Shown: positions 4,693 through 44,834 of the stretch, in pieces | Layout of the letters: each line of letters starts with the position of its first letter | Numbering within the stretch: position 1 is the stretch's first letter | IMG/VR virus record: IMGVR_UViG_3300020183_000033 | Coordinates: 25,972-89,971 of that record | Direction: 5' to 3' (one strand) | DNA from: a virus | DNA length: 64,000 bases | Program-made: the position numbers and the translations under genes | The notes under the pieces: model-generated | The model's database searches: none | Seen by the model: the letters and a program-made list of their open reading frames with translations, nothing else | Told to the model about the DNA's origin: nothing

Positions 4693-5715
4693 TTATAGAA
4701 TCTGACTAAGCATAATAGACATCGTATTTCCTCTAGTCCTCACGTAAGGTTCCTTCTTGAAGAAGTATTCTCCCCTTTTATTCCAATCCATTACAATAAA
4801 GTCTCCGTCTTCCACTTCATCCAAAGACAAGGCATTGGATATTGGTTGCACCAATTCTTTTTCTAGAACCCTCTTTAAGTTTCTAGCGCCATATTCAACC
4901 GAATAACCTGCGTCCACAATCTTTTCTTTGGCTAATTTGGTTACACCGAGGAACACCTTTTTCATTTCGCAATGGAAAAGTCTTTCTTGAATTTCCATCA
5001 GTTCGAGATCGAAAATTCTCTCCACGTCTTTTCGTACCAGCTGTTTAAACACAACGATCTTATCAATACGATTGATAAATTCAGGAAGAAAAATTTTCTT
5101 AATTTCCTTTATTATAACTGTTTCGCGTTCTGTTGCAGAAAGAATCTTCTTAGTAAATCCAATAGTATTTTCTTCTGTCTCGATTTTTCTAACGCCAATG
5201 TTGCAGGTCATAAAAATAAAGCAGTTTACAAACGAAACATCAACGTTTGAGTTCGTGGTTACAGTAGCCGTGTCTAAAATTCCAAGAAGCATATTAAACA
5301 TAGAAGGAGAAGCCTTTTCGATTTCGTCAAAAAGGATTACATTTGGCTTTCCTTTGATCTGAATACGCTCCTTAGATAGCAAAGGTTTTGTGTCTCCGTG
5401 ACCCACGTATCCTGGGGGGGCGCCTAGAAGCTTCGACAATTCATGGTGTTGCTGCAATTCACCGCAATTTATCACAACAGGATCGACATCAAAGTAGTTT
5501 CCGATTTCTTGAACAATTTTTGTCTTTCCTGTTCCTGTCGGGCCAGCGAAAAGGAAATTAAACAAAGGCTTTTTGGGGTTGTTTAATCCCACGAAGTAAC
5601 GCTGAGATCCATTACAGATCTCTTTGATTGCTTCGTCCTGCGAAATCACTTTTGACTTTAGGTACTCAGATAAACGCCTGGCTTCGCCATTAAGATTTTT
5701 GCAGTCAAGTACCAT
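4693..5715 (-). CDS. Single-module Clp-family AAA+ ATPase (ClpA/B/C D2-like) with IGF loop
   Basis: GPTGTGKT, pore loop GAPPGYVG, VILFDEIEKA, NTIGF, PEFINRID, YGARNLKR. AGGAGG at 5731-5726 places the start at 5718 (TTG) or 5715 (ATG) rather than 5748. Confidence 0.9.
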   Translation of the reverse strand: MVLDCKNLNGEARRLSEYLKSKVISQDEAIKEICNGSQRYFVGLNNPKKPLFNFLFAGPTGTGKTKIVQEIGNYFDVDPVVINCGELQQHHELSKLLGAPPGYVGHGDTKPLLSKERIQIKGKPNVILFDEIEKASPSMFNMLLGILDTATVTTNSNVDVSFVNCFIFMTCNIGVRKIETEENTIGFTKKILSATERETVIIKEIKKIFLPEFINRIDKIVVFKQLVRKDVERIFDLELMEIQERLFHCEMKKVFLGVTKLAKEKIVDAGYSVEYGARNLKRVLEKELVQPISNALSLDEVEDGDFIVMDWNKRGEYFFKKEPYVRTRGNTMSIMLSQIL

Positions 5716-5735
5716 CAAGAAACAGCCTCCTGACG

Positions 5736-5743
5736 TATTTATG
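5736..5743 (-). promoter_or_regulatory. T4-type late promoter variant (CATAAATA) for the Clp ATPase
   Basis: CATAAATA immediately upstream of the AGGAGG SD. Confidence 0.55.
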
Positions 5744-5750
5744 GGCAAAG

Positions 5751-5778
5751 CAAAAGGCTCTCCGAAGCGAGCCTTTTG
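5751..5778 (-). terminator. Rho-independent terminator ending the tmRNA transcript (potentially bidirectional)
   Basis: CAAAAGGCTC-gcttcgga-GAGCCTTTTG hairpin with A/T tracts on both sides. Confidence 0.8.
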
Positions 5779-6040
5779 GATTCTTTCTGTTTCCGAGTGA
5801 ATCGTACTCAGCTTTAGCTACCGCTCAGGCAGCATATGCATAGGCAACGTTATTGTTGGCCTTTATGTGTTTCCGCTGTTATACAGTAGTCGGCTACTGG
5901 AAATCTCCTCTCCTCTATTCCCGCCAATCGAAACTTGACACCCCCCACAAATTTCCACTCCAGAACTAGCGAATGAAAATTTGGAGGTGGTGGCATTGCA
6001 GCCACGTCTTGACAGTAGTCGAATCGGATCAACGATTCCA
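5779..6040 (-). ncRNA. ssrA: Circularly permuted (two-piece) tmRNA
   Basis: Minus-strand order: GAC + T-arm GTGGC/GCCAC (6005-5990) + CACCTCC-A (5989-5982), then an intervening hairpin, then GGGGGTG-TCAAGTTTCGA (5945 onward). The acceptor stem has G3.U70. P2 is TTGGCGG/CTGTCAA. A pseudoknot precedes the tag ORF 5860-5825, ANNNVAYAYAA*. Confidence 0.9.
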
Positions 6041-6044
6041 ATTC

Positions 6045-6052
6045 TATTTATA
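6045..6052 (-). promoter_or_regulatory. T4 late promoter TATAAATA driving the tmRNA
   Basis: Exact gp55 consensus about 5 nt upstream of the predicted acceptor-piece 5' end. Confidence 0.75.
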
Positions 6053-6071: not shown

Positions 6072-6278
6072 CTAAATAGTAGCAGGAGTAGAAAGTGTAC
6101 CACCATAATAACTCCTGCGATTAAAACCAACTTCCTTGGTAGATTCTATCCAAGCAGCATAGCCTTCTTCTAAGAGGGATTTCGCCGCTGAGACTACGGT
6201 TTTATTATACTCATCATAATAATGAGGTACACTACCAGTGGCAACATGTACTGGAATATCAATTGGTTTCTTAGGCAT
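6072..6278 (-). CDS. Hypothetical protein
   Basis: 68 aa, overlaps the stop of the upstream ORF, AAGGA SD. Confidence 0.55.
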   Translation of the reverse strand: MPKKPIDIPVHVATGSVPHYYDEYNKTVVSAAKSLLEEGYAAWIESTKEVGFNRRSYYGGTLSTPATI

Positions 6279-6933
6279 TCACGATTCCTTTCAGGACCAT
6301 CCATTCTTTCACGAATTTCAAAATTAGACCATACTCTTCAATTTGTTCAGGAGAGTAGGCGTTATCAATACCAATCTGATTATAGTTAGATAACCAGTCA
6401 TCAATGTGAAATTTTTGACCCCCAATAACAACGTTTCCTTCTTGGTCAGTGACACTGATATGGTGAACAGTTCCTGTTAGGAATAGGGGAGTAGTTTTCC
6501 ATTCGCCTCCTGACAACACACCAACAACTTTTGTGTTGCCATAAACCATTGCGTCACCGAAGACCATTGCGTTGCCATAGACACATGCGTTGTCAAAGAC
6601 CCTTGCGGTGCCAGAGACCCATGCGTTGCCAGAGACACATGCGTTGCCATAGACACATGCGTTGTCAGAGACCCTTGCGGTGCCAGAGACCCATGCGTTG
6701 CCATAGACACATGCGGTGTCAGAGACCCTTGCGGTGCCATAGACACATGCGGTGTCAGAGACCCTTGCGGTGCCAGAGACCCTTGCGTTGTCATAGATCA
6801 ACGCATTTGGCCCCACGAAAGCTGTGTCGTCTACAGTAGCGGTGTTCTTGACCCAACCTCCACCATTAGAGTGTTGATGCCAAGTTTCTTCTGTGGCATC
6901 GGGAAATAGCAATTGTAATTCTTGTAGTGTCAT
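6271..6933 (-). CDS. Hexapeptide-repeat (left-handed beta-helix) protein
   Basis: Tandem (A[RCWM]V[SYF][GD][TN])n repeats after the WHQHSNGGGWV..TA.V...A.VGP.A motif. Confidence 0.8.
   Translation of the reverse strand: MTLQELQLLFPDATEETWHQHSNGGGWVKNTATVDDTAFVGPNALIYDNARVSGTARVSDTACVYGTARVSDTACVYGNAWVSGTARVSDNACVYGNACVSGNAWVSGTARVFDNACVYGNAMVFGDAMVYGNTKVVGVLSGGEWKTTPLFLTGTVHHISVTDQEGNVVIGGQKFHIDDWLSNYNQIGIDNAYSPEQIEEYGLILKFVKEWMVLKGIVNA
6545..6800. repeat. 18-bp tandem repeats encoding the hexapeptide array
   Basis: Units such as GTGCCAGAGACCCTTGCG / TTGCCATAGACACATGCG repeated about 14 times. Confidence 0.85.
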
Positions 6934-7668: not shown

Positions 7669-8388
7669 TTAGGAACGAAGCCATTCCGTTTGTAGAACCG
7701 CAGATGACCCGCGGGTCATCTGCCTTAAAGGCACGCCATTCGCTCTGAGGATCTTGACCACATTTGAACCACGCCATTGGCAACCGAACCTCGTTAGGAT
7801 TCCTTCCCTGTTCAACTCTGTAGCGATACGGTTGGCGGTGTACTTCGGCTTCTTAATGTCTGTCAGGATTCGCTTGAGAATCTCTTCTTCCCCGTCTTTT
7901 TCGCCGTAGGTCTTTCTTCCTTCGCACTTCCCTTTTTTGACCCTTTGCCGCACCCTGGCTCCTCGCAGCTTAAGAACCAGCATTTCCTTTTCGTATTGAT
8001 GGAAAGCTCCGAGAACAGTCCTCATCATCTTTCTAGATGGATCATCAGAAGCGAGATCGGGTTCTTGAACGGAGATGACCTGTATGCCTCTGGTTTTGAA
8101 ATCCCGAAGAATGGATTCCTGAACGAACTGATCCCTAGCCAGTCGGCTGAGATTCTCTACAAGAACCGTTTTCGTTCCATTGGCTAAGAGAGCCTCCAGC
8201 AATTGAGTGAAGACGGGTCGTTGAAGGGGAAAGGTCGTTCCGCTAACAACTTCCTCGTAGATTGTTCCTAAACGGAGCTTGTTGGTTTTTGCGTAGTCCT
8301 GGATGGCTTTCCTCTGCCTTTCAAAGCCATCGCCGCCTTCTTGCCCCTTTGAGCTCACTCTGAGGTATCCAAACGCCTTTTCGTTCAT
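7669..8388 (-). CDS. Serine recombinase (resolvase/invertase catalytic domain plus short DNA-binding recombinase domain)
   Basis: GYLRVSS catalytic Ser, RQ, VSG....RP.F, SRLARD, C-terminal IA..LN..G..TR.G..W....V..IL. Confidence 0.9.
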   Translation of the reverse strand: MNEKAFGYLRVSSKGQEGGDGFERQRKAIQDYAKTNKLRLGTIYEEVVSGTTFPLQRPVFTQLLEALLANGTKTVLVENLSRLARDQFVQESILRDFKTRGIQVISVQEPDLASDDPSRKMMRTVLGAFHQYEKEMLVLKLRGARVRQRVKKGKCEGRKTYGEKDGEEEILKRILTDIKKPKYTANRIATELNREGILTRFGCQWRGSNVVKILRANGVPLRQMTRGSSAVLQTEWLRS

Positions 8389-8676: not shown

Positions 8677-9879
8677 TTACAGTTCCAATTCTTGGTCGTA
8701 GGCGGCAAGTTCGGCGAGGACGGCCCGTCGTGCGGCTTCCGCGCGACGTTTATAGGCCAAACTTAAGCTTGCCGACGATTTCGAATCAATAAACGAAATT
8801 ATCGTTTCGTTTTTCTGACGCATGATCCATTCTTGAGCCGAGACAGCCTTCCAACGACGAGCGTAGAAAAACGATTTCCAAGGAGTGTTTGCGTACAACG
8901 ACTCAATAGAAAGAGCGAACTCTTTACGATCTTCCGTGAATGGAAGAGCCGTAAAAGAAGACTCCAACTCTGCTGCGAACGATTTTATACTCGATTCAAT
9001 TTCTGTCAATCGAGAATGTAGATAGGGTAAATACGTTAAAACTTCAGTTAACTCGCCAGCGCGAATTATGTCAATTAAACTGTGGTCTAGGTTCGCGCGA
9101 GTCACAAGTGCATGAACGGCAACGTACTGGGGCGATTTCACTTTGATACGATTGAAATTGTTGTCAACCAATACGTATCCCTCAGAAGAATCAGGGGAGA
9201 GCGTTTTCGCTGCGTGTAAAATTTCTTCAATGTTGTTTAACGAATAGCGACGAACCAACGCGAGGTTAGCTACCGTATCAATCGACAATTCCTGTAACGT
9301 CACGTTGTTTCGAACGCCAATCAAAGTAAGCGAACCATTGTTGCCGCTCTGGTTCGTGACGATCTGATTAAACTGAGAAGTCAATTCAAACATGTAGGTA
9401 AATTTTGGATTACACGATTTAAAAAAGTAGCCGTTGTCTCCAAAGACCTTCCAGAATAAAGCTCTGAACGTGAACTCATTTACTCCGACGTTTCCTCCAG
9501 CATCAGGAGAACCTTTTGTTGCCACCCACCAGTTGCCGTCATAATGGTACATTATCATCAAAGACCCATCGAGTTTTTCCGCCACCTGAAAGTCATTCCA
9601 GTTAAACTGCTTCTCTCCTTCTGGGTATTCAGTGTAGTTAAAAAATCGGTTAAAGGGATACGCAACAACAGCCCAATCATTTGCGGAGTCAAGAATGACG
9701 CCGCGAGACTCAACAACAACAGGGTGAAACCGATTGTTGTAACAATTGATTTGGTTGTAGGTGAACTGAACAAGATTTGTAAATTCTGGGTGAACCGTTG
9801 TATCAATTCCAAGTTGTCGAACTGCTTCGATGCCTTTATCGCGAAGTAAAGCTTGAAGTTTAAGCGTTGGTGATAACAT
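8677..9879 (-). CDS. rnlA: RNA ligase 1 (T4 RnlA/gp63-like)
   Basis: ESRG.I, FNRFFN, motif I EKLDGSL, TYMFEL, EGYVL, R.KVKSP.Y. Confidence 0.9.
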   Translation of the reverse strand: MLSPTLKLQALLRDKGIEAVRQLGIDTTVHPEFTNLVQFTYNQINCYNNRFHPVVVESRGVILDSANDWAVVAYPFNRFFNYTEYPEGEKQFNWNDFQVAEKLDGSLMIMYHYDGNWWVATKGSPDAGGNVGVNEFTFRALFWKVFGDNGYFFKSCNPKFTYMFELTSQFNQIVTNQSGNNGSLTLIGVRNNVTLQELSIDTVANLALVRRYSLNNIEEILHAAKTLSPDSSEGYVLVDNNFNRIKVKSPQYVAVHALVTRANLDHSLIDIIRAGELTEVLTYLPYLHSRLTEIESSIKSFAAELESSFTALPFTEDRKEFALSIESLYANTPWKSFFYARRWKAVSAQEWIMRQKNETIISFIDSKSSASLSLAYKRRAEAARRAVLAELAAYDQELEL

Positions 9880-9893
9880 TTCGCTTCCTTTAA

Positions 9894-10778
9894 TTAAAAC
9901 TCGAAATCTAGAATGCCACAGTTAAACACAGGAAGTTTAAGCACGTTCCAGCACTCTCTAATCACCTGAGGGCGATCTTCAAATACAGCAATAACGTTGT
10001 ACTTCCCTTCGACGTTCTTTTTGTAGAGATTTGTTTTAACAAGAGAATCCCGACGAGTATCACCTACAGTTCGCATGTGTAGCTCGAAATTTGTCAGGTT
10101 GCATTTATCGTGCAACCACTGGAAAGTATCGTCGTAACAGGCAGTGCTACGGCCAGAAAACACAAAGAGTTTCGTGAAAGGATTTATTGCTAACATTCCT
10201 TTAACAGCCATAAGCACATGTCTACGAACTGAGTCCTGGCCAACTAAAGACTCATCAAATGGGCTACGATTTCCCGAGTCTGCCAGAGTTCCATCGATAT
10301 CAACAATTAAACAATCGGTTAGGTGATTCGGCTCGTAACTCGGGAGGGTACAGTTCTTTGCCATGTATTTGTTATACACATCCGAAATGACTTTTTGCCC
10401 AACACGCTTATGTTCTGGACGATTTTTGTCTCGCTTAACACACTCCCAATAGGACACATAGGTAAAGTCAACAAACTCAACCTCGTAACCCAGATCATCC
10501 AATAACTCCAACAGCTTCTGCAACGTCTTTGGATTTAAATGAGTGTTGTCAACAATAATGTTAAATCCGTTTTTCGCGCAATTTATGATCTGGCAAGTGC
10601 GTTCTTTGTGAACCCAATCCTGGATCTCTGGCGACCAATCGCGATGTCCTACAGTAGAATAAATTCTATCGCGGATCGCGTCGTCGTTGATAATGACTGC
10701 TTCCTTTTCCACTTGGTTTTTTTCAGCCCAGGTGGACTTACCAGAAGCTGGTAGCCCCTTTAAAACATAAGCTTTCAT
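9894..10778 (-). CDS. pseT: Polynucleotide 5'-kinase/3'-phosphatase (PseT-like)
   Basis: P-loop GLPASGKSTW, DD.R, HAD motif DIDGTLA, SGR, L.MR..GD.R.D..VK, FEDR. Confidence 0.92.
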   Translation of the reverse strand: MKAYVLKGLPASGKSTWAEKNQVEKEAVIINDDAIRDRIYSTVGHRDWSPEIQDWVHKERTCQIINCAKNGFNIIVDNTHLNPKTLQKLLELLDDLGYEVEFVDFTYVSYWECVKRDKNRPEHKRVGQKVISDVYNKYMAKNCTLPSYEPNHLTDCLIVDIDGTLADSGNRSPFDESLVGQDSVRRHVLMAVKGMLAINPFTKLFVFSGRSTACYDDTFQWLHDKCNLTNFELHMRTVGDTRRDSLVKTNLYKKNVEGKYNVIAVFEDRPQVIRECWNVLKLPVFNCGILDFEF

Positions 10779-10786
10779 ACAACTAT

Positions 10787-10843
10787 ATTATAACGCGACT
10801 AAAAGAAAAATACAAGAACTTTATTTACTTTAGAATCAATGAC
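10787..10843 (-). repeat. Promoter cassette half-copy 2 with sigma70 promoter for pseT-rnlA
   Basis: AGTCATTGATTCTAAAG...AAAGTTC then TTGTAT-17-TATAAT, 8 nt before the ATG. Confidence 0.7.
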
Positions 10844-10847
10844 TCAA

Positions 10848-11429
10848 TCAACTAAATCCAGTAGCATCTGGTACAGTTAAAGGTTTAAATTTAACGAACC
10901 TACCAACGTTCCTCGTGTGAAGTGCACGCTCCACAATCTGTTTGCAGACATCTTCAAATAAGATCGGGGTGTAGTCGATTTTTTCTACACAAACATTTAA
11001 ATAGCGAGTATCTTCTAAACTGTTTGTGTGGGTGTGTCCGTGAATGTTACAACCGAAGTGATATAGATTGGCTTCATGTACAGGAATGTGAGTCAGTAGA
11101 AAACCATTTATTAAATGAGAGCCACGAATATCGCGGAAGTATGGAGTGTAATCAGATAACTCGAAAATATCACGATTACCTCTGATAAGAACCTTATCGC
11201 CGTTTAATCGACTCAAAATCCGCAAAGAATTTCTAGAAATCGCCACATCCCCTAAGTGATACACCTTGTCGTTTGGCCGCACGGTTTCGTTCCAGCGATC
11301 GACCATGAACTCGTCCATTTCTTCACCAGAAGAAAATGGACGCGCAGGAGAACCGTCTTGTAATTTAAATTTCGTACAAAGATTCTCATGACCGAAATGT
11401 GTATCACTTATTAACCAAACTGATGGCAC
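10848..11429 (-). CDS. Calcineurin-like metallophosphoesterase
   Basis: SDTHFGH, WN..V...D.VYHLGD, GNRD (normally GNHD), THIP, HGHTH. Confidence 0.85.
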   Translation of the reverse strand: MPSVWLISDTHFGHENLCTKFKLQDGSPARPFSSGEEMDEFMVDRWNETVRPNDKVYHLGDVAISRNSLRILSRLNGDKVLIRGNRDIFELSDYTPYFRDIRGSHLINGFLLTHIPVHEANLYHFGCNIHGHTHTNSLEDTRYLNVCVEKIDYTPILFEDVCKQIVERALHTRNVGRFVKFKPLTVPDATGFS

Positions 11430-24610: not shown

Positions 24611-24886
24611 ATGGTTCTAAATTCTGAAAATTTCACCAGCGAGACTTCTTCAGGAGAATCGCTGGTTGTTTTTTCTTCCTCCAACTCTGCGAAATTAGCA
24701 CCAGTTCTCGCCAAACTTTCTTTCCATCCCAGAGTCTTTACTCTTGATATTGAGACAAATCGAGATTTGGCGGCTAACTACAATATCAGAATTACACCGA
24801 TTGTATATCATTTTAAAGAAGGCAACATTATAAATACCTATAAGATCAACCAACTAGAAGAACTCATATGTACACTAAAATATTAG
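24611..24886 (+). CDS. Thioredoxin-fold protein lacking the CxxC active site
   Basis: LNSENF...LVVF...KLAPVL..L....F.LDI..N.DLA..Y.I...P....FK.G aligns with thioredoxin, but WCGPC is missing. Confidence 0.65.
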   Translation: MVLNSENFTSETSSGESLVVFSSSNSAKLAPVLAKLSFHPRVFTLDIETNRDLAANYNIRITPIVYHFKEGNIINTYKINQLEELICTLKY

Positions 24887-25939: not shown

Positions 25940-26218
25940 GTGGAACAAAACTTAAAAACATTTTGCAATAGTAAGTGGGAGATCTTCGTTAGAAGTATAG
26001 CGAGTGAAGGTGGCAATATTATTGTTTTGTTGTTTTTGATTCTTGTTCTTGGAATTTTTGTTTTATTGAAATTTGATGGTGCCACTGAGCAGCTGTACTT
26101 TGTACTCGGTGCATTAGTTGGTGTATTAAAAGGAAGGATAGCCTCTAATCCTAATCAAATAGATATTAAAACAGAAAAAACTATTTCTTTACTTGAGGAT
26201 AATTCTAAGGTAGAATAG
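25940..26218 (+). CDS. Two-TM membrane protein (holin-like)
   Basis: IIVLLFLILVLGIFVLL and LYFVLGALVGVL hydrophobic segments. Confidence 0.55.
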   Translation: MEQNLKTFCNSKWEIFVRSIASEGGNIIVLLFLILVLGIFVLLKFDGATEQLYFVLGALVGVLKGRIASNPNQIDIKTEKTISLLEDNSKVE

Positions 26219-44390: not shown

Positions 44391-44834
44391 TTATTTTCCG
44401 AACAGTTCTTTTTCTGTGAATACTTTAAAGATAATTCCGTTTATCTCTGCAAACTTCTCTGCGGCTTGCCACTTCGCCTGATTTACCGCATAGTTCTGAC
44501 ACTCTTTTATATATGCAGGAGTTACTCGCTTTTTTTGGACAGGAGGTTGAGTCTGGGAATATGGCTTAACTTCAATGATATATGTCTTAATCTTCCCTGA
44601 AGAATCTCTTAACTTAACGTAGAAGTCTACGAAGTACCGATGTATCCTGCCGTCTAACGGAGAGATATAAGGAACAATGATTTCTTCCGAACCATACTCC
44701 AGAACACCTGGGTTCTCGTCCAGAAACTTCATCAGCTTGTATTCCCAAGAAGAACGGAAGATAATATTGTTGACGTCGCCGCGATACTTCTGCGGATTCT
44801 TTGGAGTAAATCTTCCCTTATAAGTGTTTCTCAT
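44391..44834 (-). CDS. gp4: Head completion nuclease gp4 (TnsA-like)
   Basis: YKG.F.P.NP.KY.GD...I..RSSWE, SEE..VPY.SP.D...HRYF.DF, IEVKP, N.AKW.AA. Confidence 0.92.
   Translation of the reverse strand: MRNTYKGRFTPKNPQKYRGDVNNIIFRSSWEYKLMKFLDENPGVLEYGSEEIIVPYISPLDGRIHRYFVDFYVKLRDSSGKIKTYIIEVKPYSQTQPPVQKKRVTPAYIKECQNYAVNQAKWQAAEKFAEINGIIFKVFTEKELFGK

Follow-up and report, generated by a model that had tools for sequence, protein, structure and literature searches.

Does a stretch of phage DNA over which a small open reading frame (ORF) can be drawn encode a protein or an RNA, and if it is an RNA, of what kind and of what origin? This question is raised by a locus on the minus strand of IMG/VR virus record IMGVR_UViG_3300020183_000033, of which positions 25,972 to 89,971 were analysed (64,000 nucleotides, hereafter the window, to which coordinates refer unless another record is named). 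The window forms the 3' part of a 90-kb contig, for which CheckV gives a completeness of about 50%. An earlier note on this DNA, made from its letters alone, had read the locus as a circularly permuted, two-piece gene for transfer-messenger RNA (tmRNA), the RNA which rescues stalled ribosomes and tags incomplete proteins for degradation. Our results bear this out: the minus strand from 6052 to approximately 5747 is very probably a complete circularly permuted tmRNA gene, carried by a freshwater T4-like myovirus.

Covariance models and folding

The locus was matched by RF04321 (tmRNA_permuted), the merged permuted-tmRNA model of Rfam 15, built in PMC11915505. The match spans all 213 model positions and reaches 81.2 bits, where the gathering score is 47, with an E-value of 5.6e-14 for the whole window. 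The alpha, beta and cyano clade models each give a full-length, sub-threshold alignment of the gene as well, with model positions 1-331 of 331 aligned in the case of beta_tmRNA (RF01850; E 4e-21). When other families were looked for between 5500 and 6400 at E-values up to 10, neither a glutamine riboswitch nor any other Rfam family was matched above chance level.

The order of the parts, read from the sequence and from the RF04321 and beta_tmRNA alignments, is permuted; P2 strands, the T-arm and the 3' acceptor strand lie 5' of the 5' acceptor strand, the D-loop analogue, P2, the first pseudoknot (PK1) and the tag. The predicted precursor folds with -97.2 kcal/mol (z -3.7; 0/200 shuffles were equally stable), and its minimum free energy structure contains the helix P2a, the terminal P2 helix, the stack of the acceptor with the intervening segment (IVS), PK1 stem 1, the stop hairpin and the terminal hairpin. 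Every helix and element named in the earlier note was found again in its place when the sequence was read, while the gene extends about 30 nt beyond the 3' coordinate given there, up to a terminator at approximately 5747.

Homologs and covariation

By searching with the neighbouring ATPase gene and with conserved RNA motifs, five further distinct homologs were obtained, designated L002, L003, L006, L090 and L205. L003 is identical to L004, L005, L202 and L207, L090 is identical to L204, and L203 is nearly identical to L205. L207 is JBIKJV010000305.1, a contig of a Lake Mendota metagenome-assembled genome labelled 'Phycisphaerales', which matches L003 exactly across tmRNA and ATPase; most likely it is of phage origin and was binned with a bacterial genome by mistake. 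All five homologs pass RF04321 with 89-111 bits, the 81 bits of the window being the lowest of the six variants. The alpha model is passed by L003, L205, L006 and the pelagiphage HTVC008M, and the beta model by L002; for the window and L090, beta is the best clade model, yet sub-threshold.

Covariation was examined in the six family variants, window included, together with HTVC008M (seven sequences). It was counted by a script on anchored helix strands because MAFFT alignments misplace the T-arm and the IVS. In the acceptor and T stems 84/84 cells pair, with double-sided changes at 8 of the 12 positions, compared with 39-48/84 paired cells and 1-3 double-sided positions in a control in which the partner strand was slid by 1-3 nt. 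G3.U70 and A73 are invariant in all seven sequences, and acceptor positions 4-6 covary. For P2a and the terminal P2 helix the sequence is wholly different between members while complementarity is kept. Both stems of PK1 covary (CAGUAG/CUACUG vs UGGUAG/CUACCA in stem 1; CCG/CGG vs ACG/CGU in stem 2), and stem 2 of the 3' pseudoknot has five sequence versions, each of them perfectly complementary, which flank an invariant linker, GAAACAGAA. Such a pattern is what selection on a structured RNA leaves behind. Also, the tags of the relatives have 10-12 residues and end in AA. Covariance-model support and covariation among related phages, on which the earlier note had let its reading depend, were thus both found, and with the helix anatomy they carry the identification as a permuted tmRNA gene.

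The motif scans require exact matches, therefore the size of the family as given here is a lower bound. A composite motif applied to metagenome and genome collections yielded one new variant (L203/L205), duplicates and three chance matches, and recovered no bacterial tmRNA; the PK1/3'-pseudoknot motif of the family was present in none of 185,579 bacterial species-representative genomes. A blastn search with the window and L006 tmRNAs found nothing among 50,697 phage records, short divergent RNAs being beyond the reach of blastn. L086, L089 and L091, from the first motif scan of viral contigs, were rejected as chance matches in coding DNA. A relaxed scan gave more than 100 stretches, nearly all of them chance, and the screen for a tRNA-like domain was passed by the known family alone.

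Two of the family genes differ in a particular way. L003:2676-2990 and L205:7385-7657(-) agree almost completely in the tag region, the 3' pseudoknot and the downstream ATPase, and have nothing in common in the tRNA-like domain, IVS, P2 and PK1. The comparison suggests modular exchange of a contiguous tRNA-like domain; a single recombination could swap the domain, because the permuted gene keeps it contiguous in DNA.

A second, unrelated group of phages with a permuted tmRNA was also seen (L214 and L215, on contigs G030 and G039; RF04321 64.8 bits). Its gene has a canonical T-loop, 3 nt from CCA to G1, a sigma-70-like promoter and the tag AKNTKVLYANA.

Anatomy of the gene

All parts described here are on the minus strand. 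The acceptor piece, delimited by the RF04321 alignment and the helix tables, occupies 5982..6039 and has about 58 nt before CCA addition. It contains the terminal P2 strand GGAATC followed by a conserved UGAUC, the 5' strand of P2a (CTGTCAA, 6015-6009) and GAC (6008-6006), the T-arm GTGGC/TGCAAT/GCCAC (6005-5990) and the 3' acceptor strand CACCTCC (5989-5983), which is followed by the discriminator A at 5982 and then by AAT. The IVS comes next (36 nt, 5946..5981); RNase P and 3' processing are predicted to excise it. The 12-bp hairpin that had been proposed for this segment, which involves A5982, was recovered (-10.1 kcal/mol, z -3.5), and the segment varies from 12 to 88 nt in length among the homologs.

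The start of the coding piece (5921..5945; RF04321 and beta alignments, helix tables) consists of the 5' acceptor strand GGGGGTG (5945-5939, with G1 at 5945 and the G3.U70 pair), the D-loop analogue TCAAGTTTCGA (5938-5928) and the 3' strand of P2a, TTGGCGG (5927-5921), which pairs with CTGTCAA. The two pieces are joined by two P2 helices, P2a (CUGUCAA/UUGGCGG) and the terminal helix (GGAAUC/GAUUUC), both of which covary. The 3' strand of the latter, GATTTC, and PK1 lie within 5873..5905; stem 1 of PK1 is CAGTAG/CTACTG (5899-5884), and stem 2 is formed by the loop CCG (5893-5891) with CGG (5875-5873).

The resume context ATAAAG stands directly before the tag frame (5825..5860), which aligns with the resume/tag region of RF04321 and beta_tmRNA and reads, from the resume codon GCC, ANNNVAYAYAA to the stop TGA at 5827-5825. 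The stop codon lies inside the loop of a hairpin (GCTGCC/GGTAGC, 5817..5833) which is supported by folding and by the homologs. The 3' pseudoknot follows at 5779..5811, with CTGAGT/ACTCGG as stem 1 and, beyond the linker, GATTC/GAATC as stem 2, and is supported by covariation and by HTVC008M. Finally, a GC-rich hairpin, AAAAGGCTC...GAGCCTTTT (5777-5752), followed by GCTTT, closes the gene (5747..5777). It aligns with the terminator hairpin of beta_tmRNA and, as modelled, is a probable intrinsic terminator; a terminator scan flags it in the + orientation only, because part of the U-run falls within the stem.

The unusual tRNA-like domain

Several results weigh against the identification and have to be set beside the support for it. 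The gene falls below the gathering scores of the clade models (beta_tmRNA 70.5 vs 84, alpha_tmRNA (RF01849) 31.2 vs 50, cyano_tmRNA (RF01851) 31.0 vs 70), and ARAGORN made no tmRNA call on the window. The T-loop has 6 nt (UGCAAU) instead of the canonical 7 nt, on a 5-bp T-stem that is present and covaries, and across the family the T-loops range from 6 to 9 nt, with only that of L002 canonical (UGCAAUA in HTVC008M; GGCGGAA, UUUAACU or a 9-nt loop in other members). In the window copy alone CCA is unencoded, the gene reading A-AAT where all relatives encode CCA. Moreover, SmpB was not found on the 90-kb contig, which holds about half of the genome.

Of the programs and models that the earlier note had proposed to run, RF04321 therefore came out positive, while ARAGORN and the beta, alpha and cyano gathering scores came out negative. 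The silence of ARAGORN is not a valid negative, because it called only one of the five family members on which it was run (window, L002, L003, L006 and L090; L205 was left out of these runs), and this one was L002, with the canonical T-loop. The same figure, together with the failure of the clade-specific Rfam models on the window copy, points to a detection gap, in which censuses of phage tmRNAs that rely on such tools are likely to undercount them.

The short T-loop and the absent CCA are real and not assembly errors, because they are identical in three lake-metagenome runs. Near-identical DNA is present in about 20 lake-water or freshwater metagenome runs; in X15, X19 and X20, three runs with contigs across the tRNA-like domain, the sequence equals that of the window, T-loop and CCA-less end included, and in four lake or freshwater runs the contigs are without variants where the region is covered. 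Among the listed sequencing runs carrying the window sequence there was no RNA run. The heterogeneity of the T-loops indicates that wide variation of the tRNA-like domain is tolerated while the helices are still conserved.

An aberrant tRNA-like domain could also mean that the RNA is mainly a decoy, which titrates host SmpB, AlaRS or EF-Tu and thereby inhibits host trans-translation. The non-canonical 6-nt T-loop, the heterogeneous T-loops of the family and the unencoded CCA would fit this, and a decoy role has been proposed for the tmRNA of mycobacteriophage DS6A, which consists of the tRNA-like domain (TLD) only (PMC4131195, PMC11915505). However, the complete mRNA-like domain is conserved in our family, with a covarying PK1, the resume context AAAC..ATAA, an open tag frame ending in AA, a stop codon within a hairpin and the 3' pseudoknot, and a decoy would have no need of any of them. 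We therefore regard a decoy as improbable, although it is the best placed of the alternatives to a working tmRNA.

Slightly less probable still is that the window gene is a decaying, non-functional copy, having lost a T-loop nucleotide and CCA, of a tmRNA that is functional in the relatives. This copy alone combines a 6-nt T-loop with a missing CCA, and its RF04321 score is the lowest of the six variants. Against decay, all helices are intact with zero mismatches, as are the tag frame, the promoter and the terminator, and the sequence is invariant across the lake samples compared, in a phage which recurs in the freshwater runs mentioned above. An encoded 3' CCA is typical but not essential, and in a host with a CCA-adding enzyme its loss is harmless, as in tRNA maturation.

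Origin of the permuted order and the overlapping ORF

The earlier note had further suggested an independent permutation lineage. The failure of the window gene at all three clade-model cut-offs, and the lack of the PK1/3'-pseudoknot motif in the bacterial species representatives, would agree with a permuted arrangement that arose separately in these phages. On the other side, beta_tmRNA aligns from end to end, the relatives pass alpha or beta, the acceptor stem is the same as in the alpha-type tmRNA of HTVC008M, the T-loop and the pseudoknot with its AACAGAA linker are closely similar to those of that phage, and the domain order and the reduced set of pseudoknots are as in the proteobacterial two-piece forms. 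Because of the resemblance to HTVC008M and the end-to-end alignment with proteobacterial models, an independent permutation event is unlikely on sequence comparison, to the point that we would hardly expect it, and this part of the note was not upheld. All known permuted tmRNAs have their break after the last pseudoknot and before the 3' strand of P2; since all of them share this position, the break point cannot discriminate between the readings of origin.

The ORF drawn over the RNA gene (5850..6041, minus strand, 63 aa, TTG start) is a gene-calling artefact, and the earlier note was right in calling it spurious. In the five homologs from IMG/VR and metagenomes (HTVC008M is excluded from this count), each of the three sense frames is interrupted by 5-9 stops, so that the frame is closed in all five. 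That the region encodes this 63-aa protein and resembles an RNA by accident has an open frame with a TTG start in its favour, and can be dismissed almost entirely in view of the zero Pfam or PHROG matches, these stops, the covarying helices and a covariance-model E-value of 6e-14. The case shows how gene callers put a false ORF on top of a tmRNA.

Putative late expression and a proposed pathway

The gene is preceded by TATAAATA (6045..6052, minus strand), a T4-type late promoter motif. In 5/6 variants the corresponding motif, NATAAATA, precedes the start of the 5'-terminal helix by 4-6 nt, and this placement holds in L203 and L205 despite their mutually different upstream flanks. Within 120 nt upstream of same-strand ORF starts (ORFs of at least 100 aa), the motif occurs 9 times against 1.7 expected, the maximum in 200 shuffles being 6. 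The phage has a gene for the late sigma factor gp55 (1117-1662; phrog_234, E 2e-51), and a promoter scan found no sigma-70-like site upstream of the RNA. The T4-type late-promoter pattern is complete in this phage, with TATAAATA at about -10, no -35 element and gp55 in the same genome. Late transcription, as the earlier note had it, is plausible from this T4-type motif and can reasonably be expected from established T4 biology, and the transcript is predicted to begin at about G6039. The NATAAATA sites also provide a usable late-promoter map of the phage; examples of such sites upstream of ORFs are those at 24829, 28838, 35997, 49868, 50216, 55030 and 62940 (+) and at 44392 and 5743 (-).

By homology with characterised systems, a pathway can be proposed for the RNA, in which transcription, processing, charging, tagging and the fate of the tagged proteins are all inferred. 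Late in infection, gp55-directed RNA polymerase would start about 6 nt downstream of TATAAATA and produce a precursor of about 290 nt ending at the terminal hairpin. Host RNase P would cleave 5' of G5945, host 3'-processing enzymes would trim to A5982, the CCA-adding enzyme would supply CCA, and the hairpin-forming intervening segment would be thrown away. The 58-nt acceptor piece (6039-5982, plus CCA) and a coding piece of about 195 nt would then remain paired through the P2 helices and the 7-bp acceptor stem. Host AlaRS could charge this RNA via G3.U70 and A73 and, with host SmpB, it would enter stalled ribosomes, where translation would resume at GCC 5860 and append (A)ANNNVAYAYAA. In this scheme the gene itself provides all that trans-translation requires apart from the functions expected of the host, namely RNase P, 3' trimming, CCA addition, AlaRS, EF-Tu and SmpB. 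Tagged proteins would probably be degraded by ClpP, after unfolding by a host enzyme or else by the phage's own D2-type Clp ATPase described below; neither ClpP nor psbA was found on the 90-kb contig, which represents only about 50% of the genome.

A recurrent Clp ATPase neighbour

Directly downstream of the tmRNA gene lies a gene (4693..5743, minus strand) for a 340-aa single-ring Hsp100 D2-type AAA+ ATPase, identified by Pfam and PDB matches and preceded by CATAAATA (5743-5736) and a Shine-Dalgarno sequence before the ATG at 5715. Its Pfam domains are AAA_2 and ClpB_D2-small only, and its PDB matches are the D2 modules of ClpB, ClpC and ClpA (E ~1e-55 to 1e-50). The segment NTIGFTKK aligns with KSIGLIH, the ClpP-docking (IGL) loop of E. 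coli ClpA, and the tripeptide [IVLM]-G-[FYL] is kept in nearly all 76 viral homologs, being deleted as in ClpB only in L023, L027 and L078, the first two of which are on contigs classed as proviruses.

Within the ATPase clade closest to the window protein, the tmRNA is directly upstream of the ATPase in four variants (window, L002, L003 and L205) and one gene apart from it in L006; L090 alone is without the ATPase, on a 24-kb fragment. This synteny, in 5/6 variants, is kept across 40-64% ATPase identity and differing upstream flanks. A small gene for a secreted SleB-like cell-wall hydrolase stands 3' of the tmRNA in two of the variants, L006 (L006:2516-2956, between tmRNA and ATPase) and L090 (L090:7433-7879, where the ATPase does not follow). 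Compared with other viral homologs, the tmRNA-linked ATPase clade has a 3-7-aa insertion just past the GYVG pore loop and a basic C-terminal extension.

The ATPase family itself is widespread in phages without tmRNA. Of 44 contigs with more distant homologs (L007-L050), 40 have no RF04321 match, including three complete jumbo-phage genomes, two (G030 and G039) have the different permuted tmRNA mentioned above about 6 kb from the ATPase, and two have sub-threshold matches only. The ATPase homolog of G030 and G039 shows 33% identity. No close homolog was found in cultured phages, where the best identity is 37%, and a related-locus search with the L006 ATPase returned L006 itself only.

The recurrent Clp unfoldase is the most interesting lead from this locus. 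The tmRNA and the adjacent ATPase could perhaps form a phage-private 'tag-and-degrade' cassette, expressed late from NATAAATA, in which the tmRNA marks the products of stalled ribosomes with a non-canonical degron and the unfoldase, docking on host ClpP via IGF, prefers this degron, and in which the permuted layout makes the tRNA-like domain one exchangeable DNA module; we put this forward tentatively and judge it possible but rather doubtful. The ATPase-linked tags end in YAA, AAA or MAA while the unlinked ones of L090 and HTVC008M end in LAA, which with so few cases is a lead only. No description of a tmRNA-Clp module was found in the searchable literature. If the proposal were true, some phages would bring both halves of the trans-translation and proteolysis pathway, which bears on the question of why phages carry tmRNA.

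Genome context

The T4-like character of the phage is seen in its myovirus genes, which include gp47/gp46, RnlA, Pnk, gp55 and genes for baseplate and tail. Among cultured phages the cyanomyophages are nearest to it, with a gp46 amino-acid identity of only 44%. Within 3 kb of the tmRNA there is an RNA-repair cluster (8677-11429, minus strand) of a T4 Rnl1-like ligase, a polynucleotide kinase and a phosphoesterase. A serine recombinase with Resolvase and Recombinase domains (7669-8388, minus strand) is encoded 1.6 kb from the tmRNA, in a phage that is T4-like and presumably lytic. Genes for tmRNA often serve as sites of integration, but that of the window is a whole gene rather than an att fragment. 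A 220-aa protein (6271-6933, minus strand), encoded immediately upstream of the tmRNA promoter, consists largely of YdcK-type beta-solenoid repeats, and long spurious ORFs arise from these repeats, both in other frames and on the complementary strand.

Comparison with known systems

The earlier note had held that known phage tmRNAs are one-piece, which was the state of knowledge in about 2014 (PMC4131195) and is now outdated. In the census of Buchholz et al. 2022, which comprised 133 unique phage tmRNAs, 53 were two-piece, and marine or aquatic phages accounted for 50 of these; among the carriers are HTVC008M, two cyanomyophages (S-CAM1 and S-SSM6a), Caulobacter phages and Melnitz (PMC9004378). 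Phages are not mentioned in the supplements of PMC11915505. The gene described here is a new, uncultured freshwater member of a documented class, and novelty of the class is not supported.

Phage ssrA genes are also known from mycobacteriophages of the Bxz1 group and from Bacillus phage G, but these are one-piece and belong to other phage groups and hosts, and the RNA of DS6A is TLD-only, unlike the complete gene of the window (PMC4131195). The bacterial two-piece tmRNAs share with the window gene the permuted order, the holding together of the pieces by acceptor stem and P2, a PK1 before the tag and reduced 3' pseudoknots. Unlike them, the window gene is below every clade-model threshold, has a 6-nt T-loop and an unencoded CCA, is phage-borne and has a T4-type late promoter.

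Among aquatic myophages of streamlined hosts, the Methylophilales phage Melnitz and marine myophage contigs carry a two-piece tmRNA, which was found in 17 of 47 related contigs (PMC9004378). By its published description, the Melnitz gene has an early promoter and a glutamine riboswitch in the 3' domain, and lies upstream of a gp33-like coactivator (PMC9004378), whereas the window gene has a late-type promoter, no riboswitch match and a Clp ATPase downstream.

The comparison that goes furthest is with HTVC008M, the tmRNA of which is listed as permuted in Table S1 of PMC9004378. We located this two-piece gene at NC_020484.1 145161-145370 (L221:1501-1710), where it is unannotated in RefSeq and its 5' end overlaps the 3' end of the hypothetical protein gp194 (144891-145181). 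HTVC008M differs from the window in its 7-nt T-loop, its encoded CCA, its passing of alpha_tmRNA at 83.8 bits and its different PK1 sequence, and it has neither TATAAATA upstream nor a Clp ATPase in its whole genome. It is nevertheless, like the window, a T4-like aquatic myovirus whose tmRNA has the permuted order, the identical acceptor stem GGGGGUG/CACCUCC, a single 3' pseudoknot with an AACAGAA linker, a T-loop of UGCAAUA compared with UGCAAU, and a tag of the AN.N...AA type (ANFNEYALAA). The window gene adds a freshwater, uncultured branch to the known phage two-piece tmRNAs.

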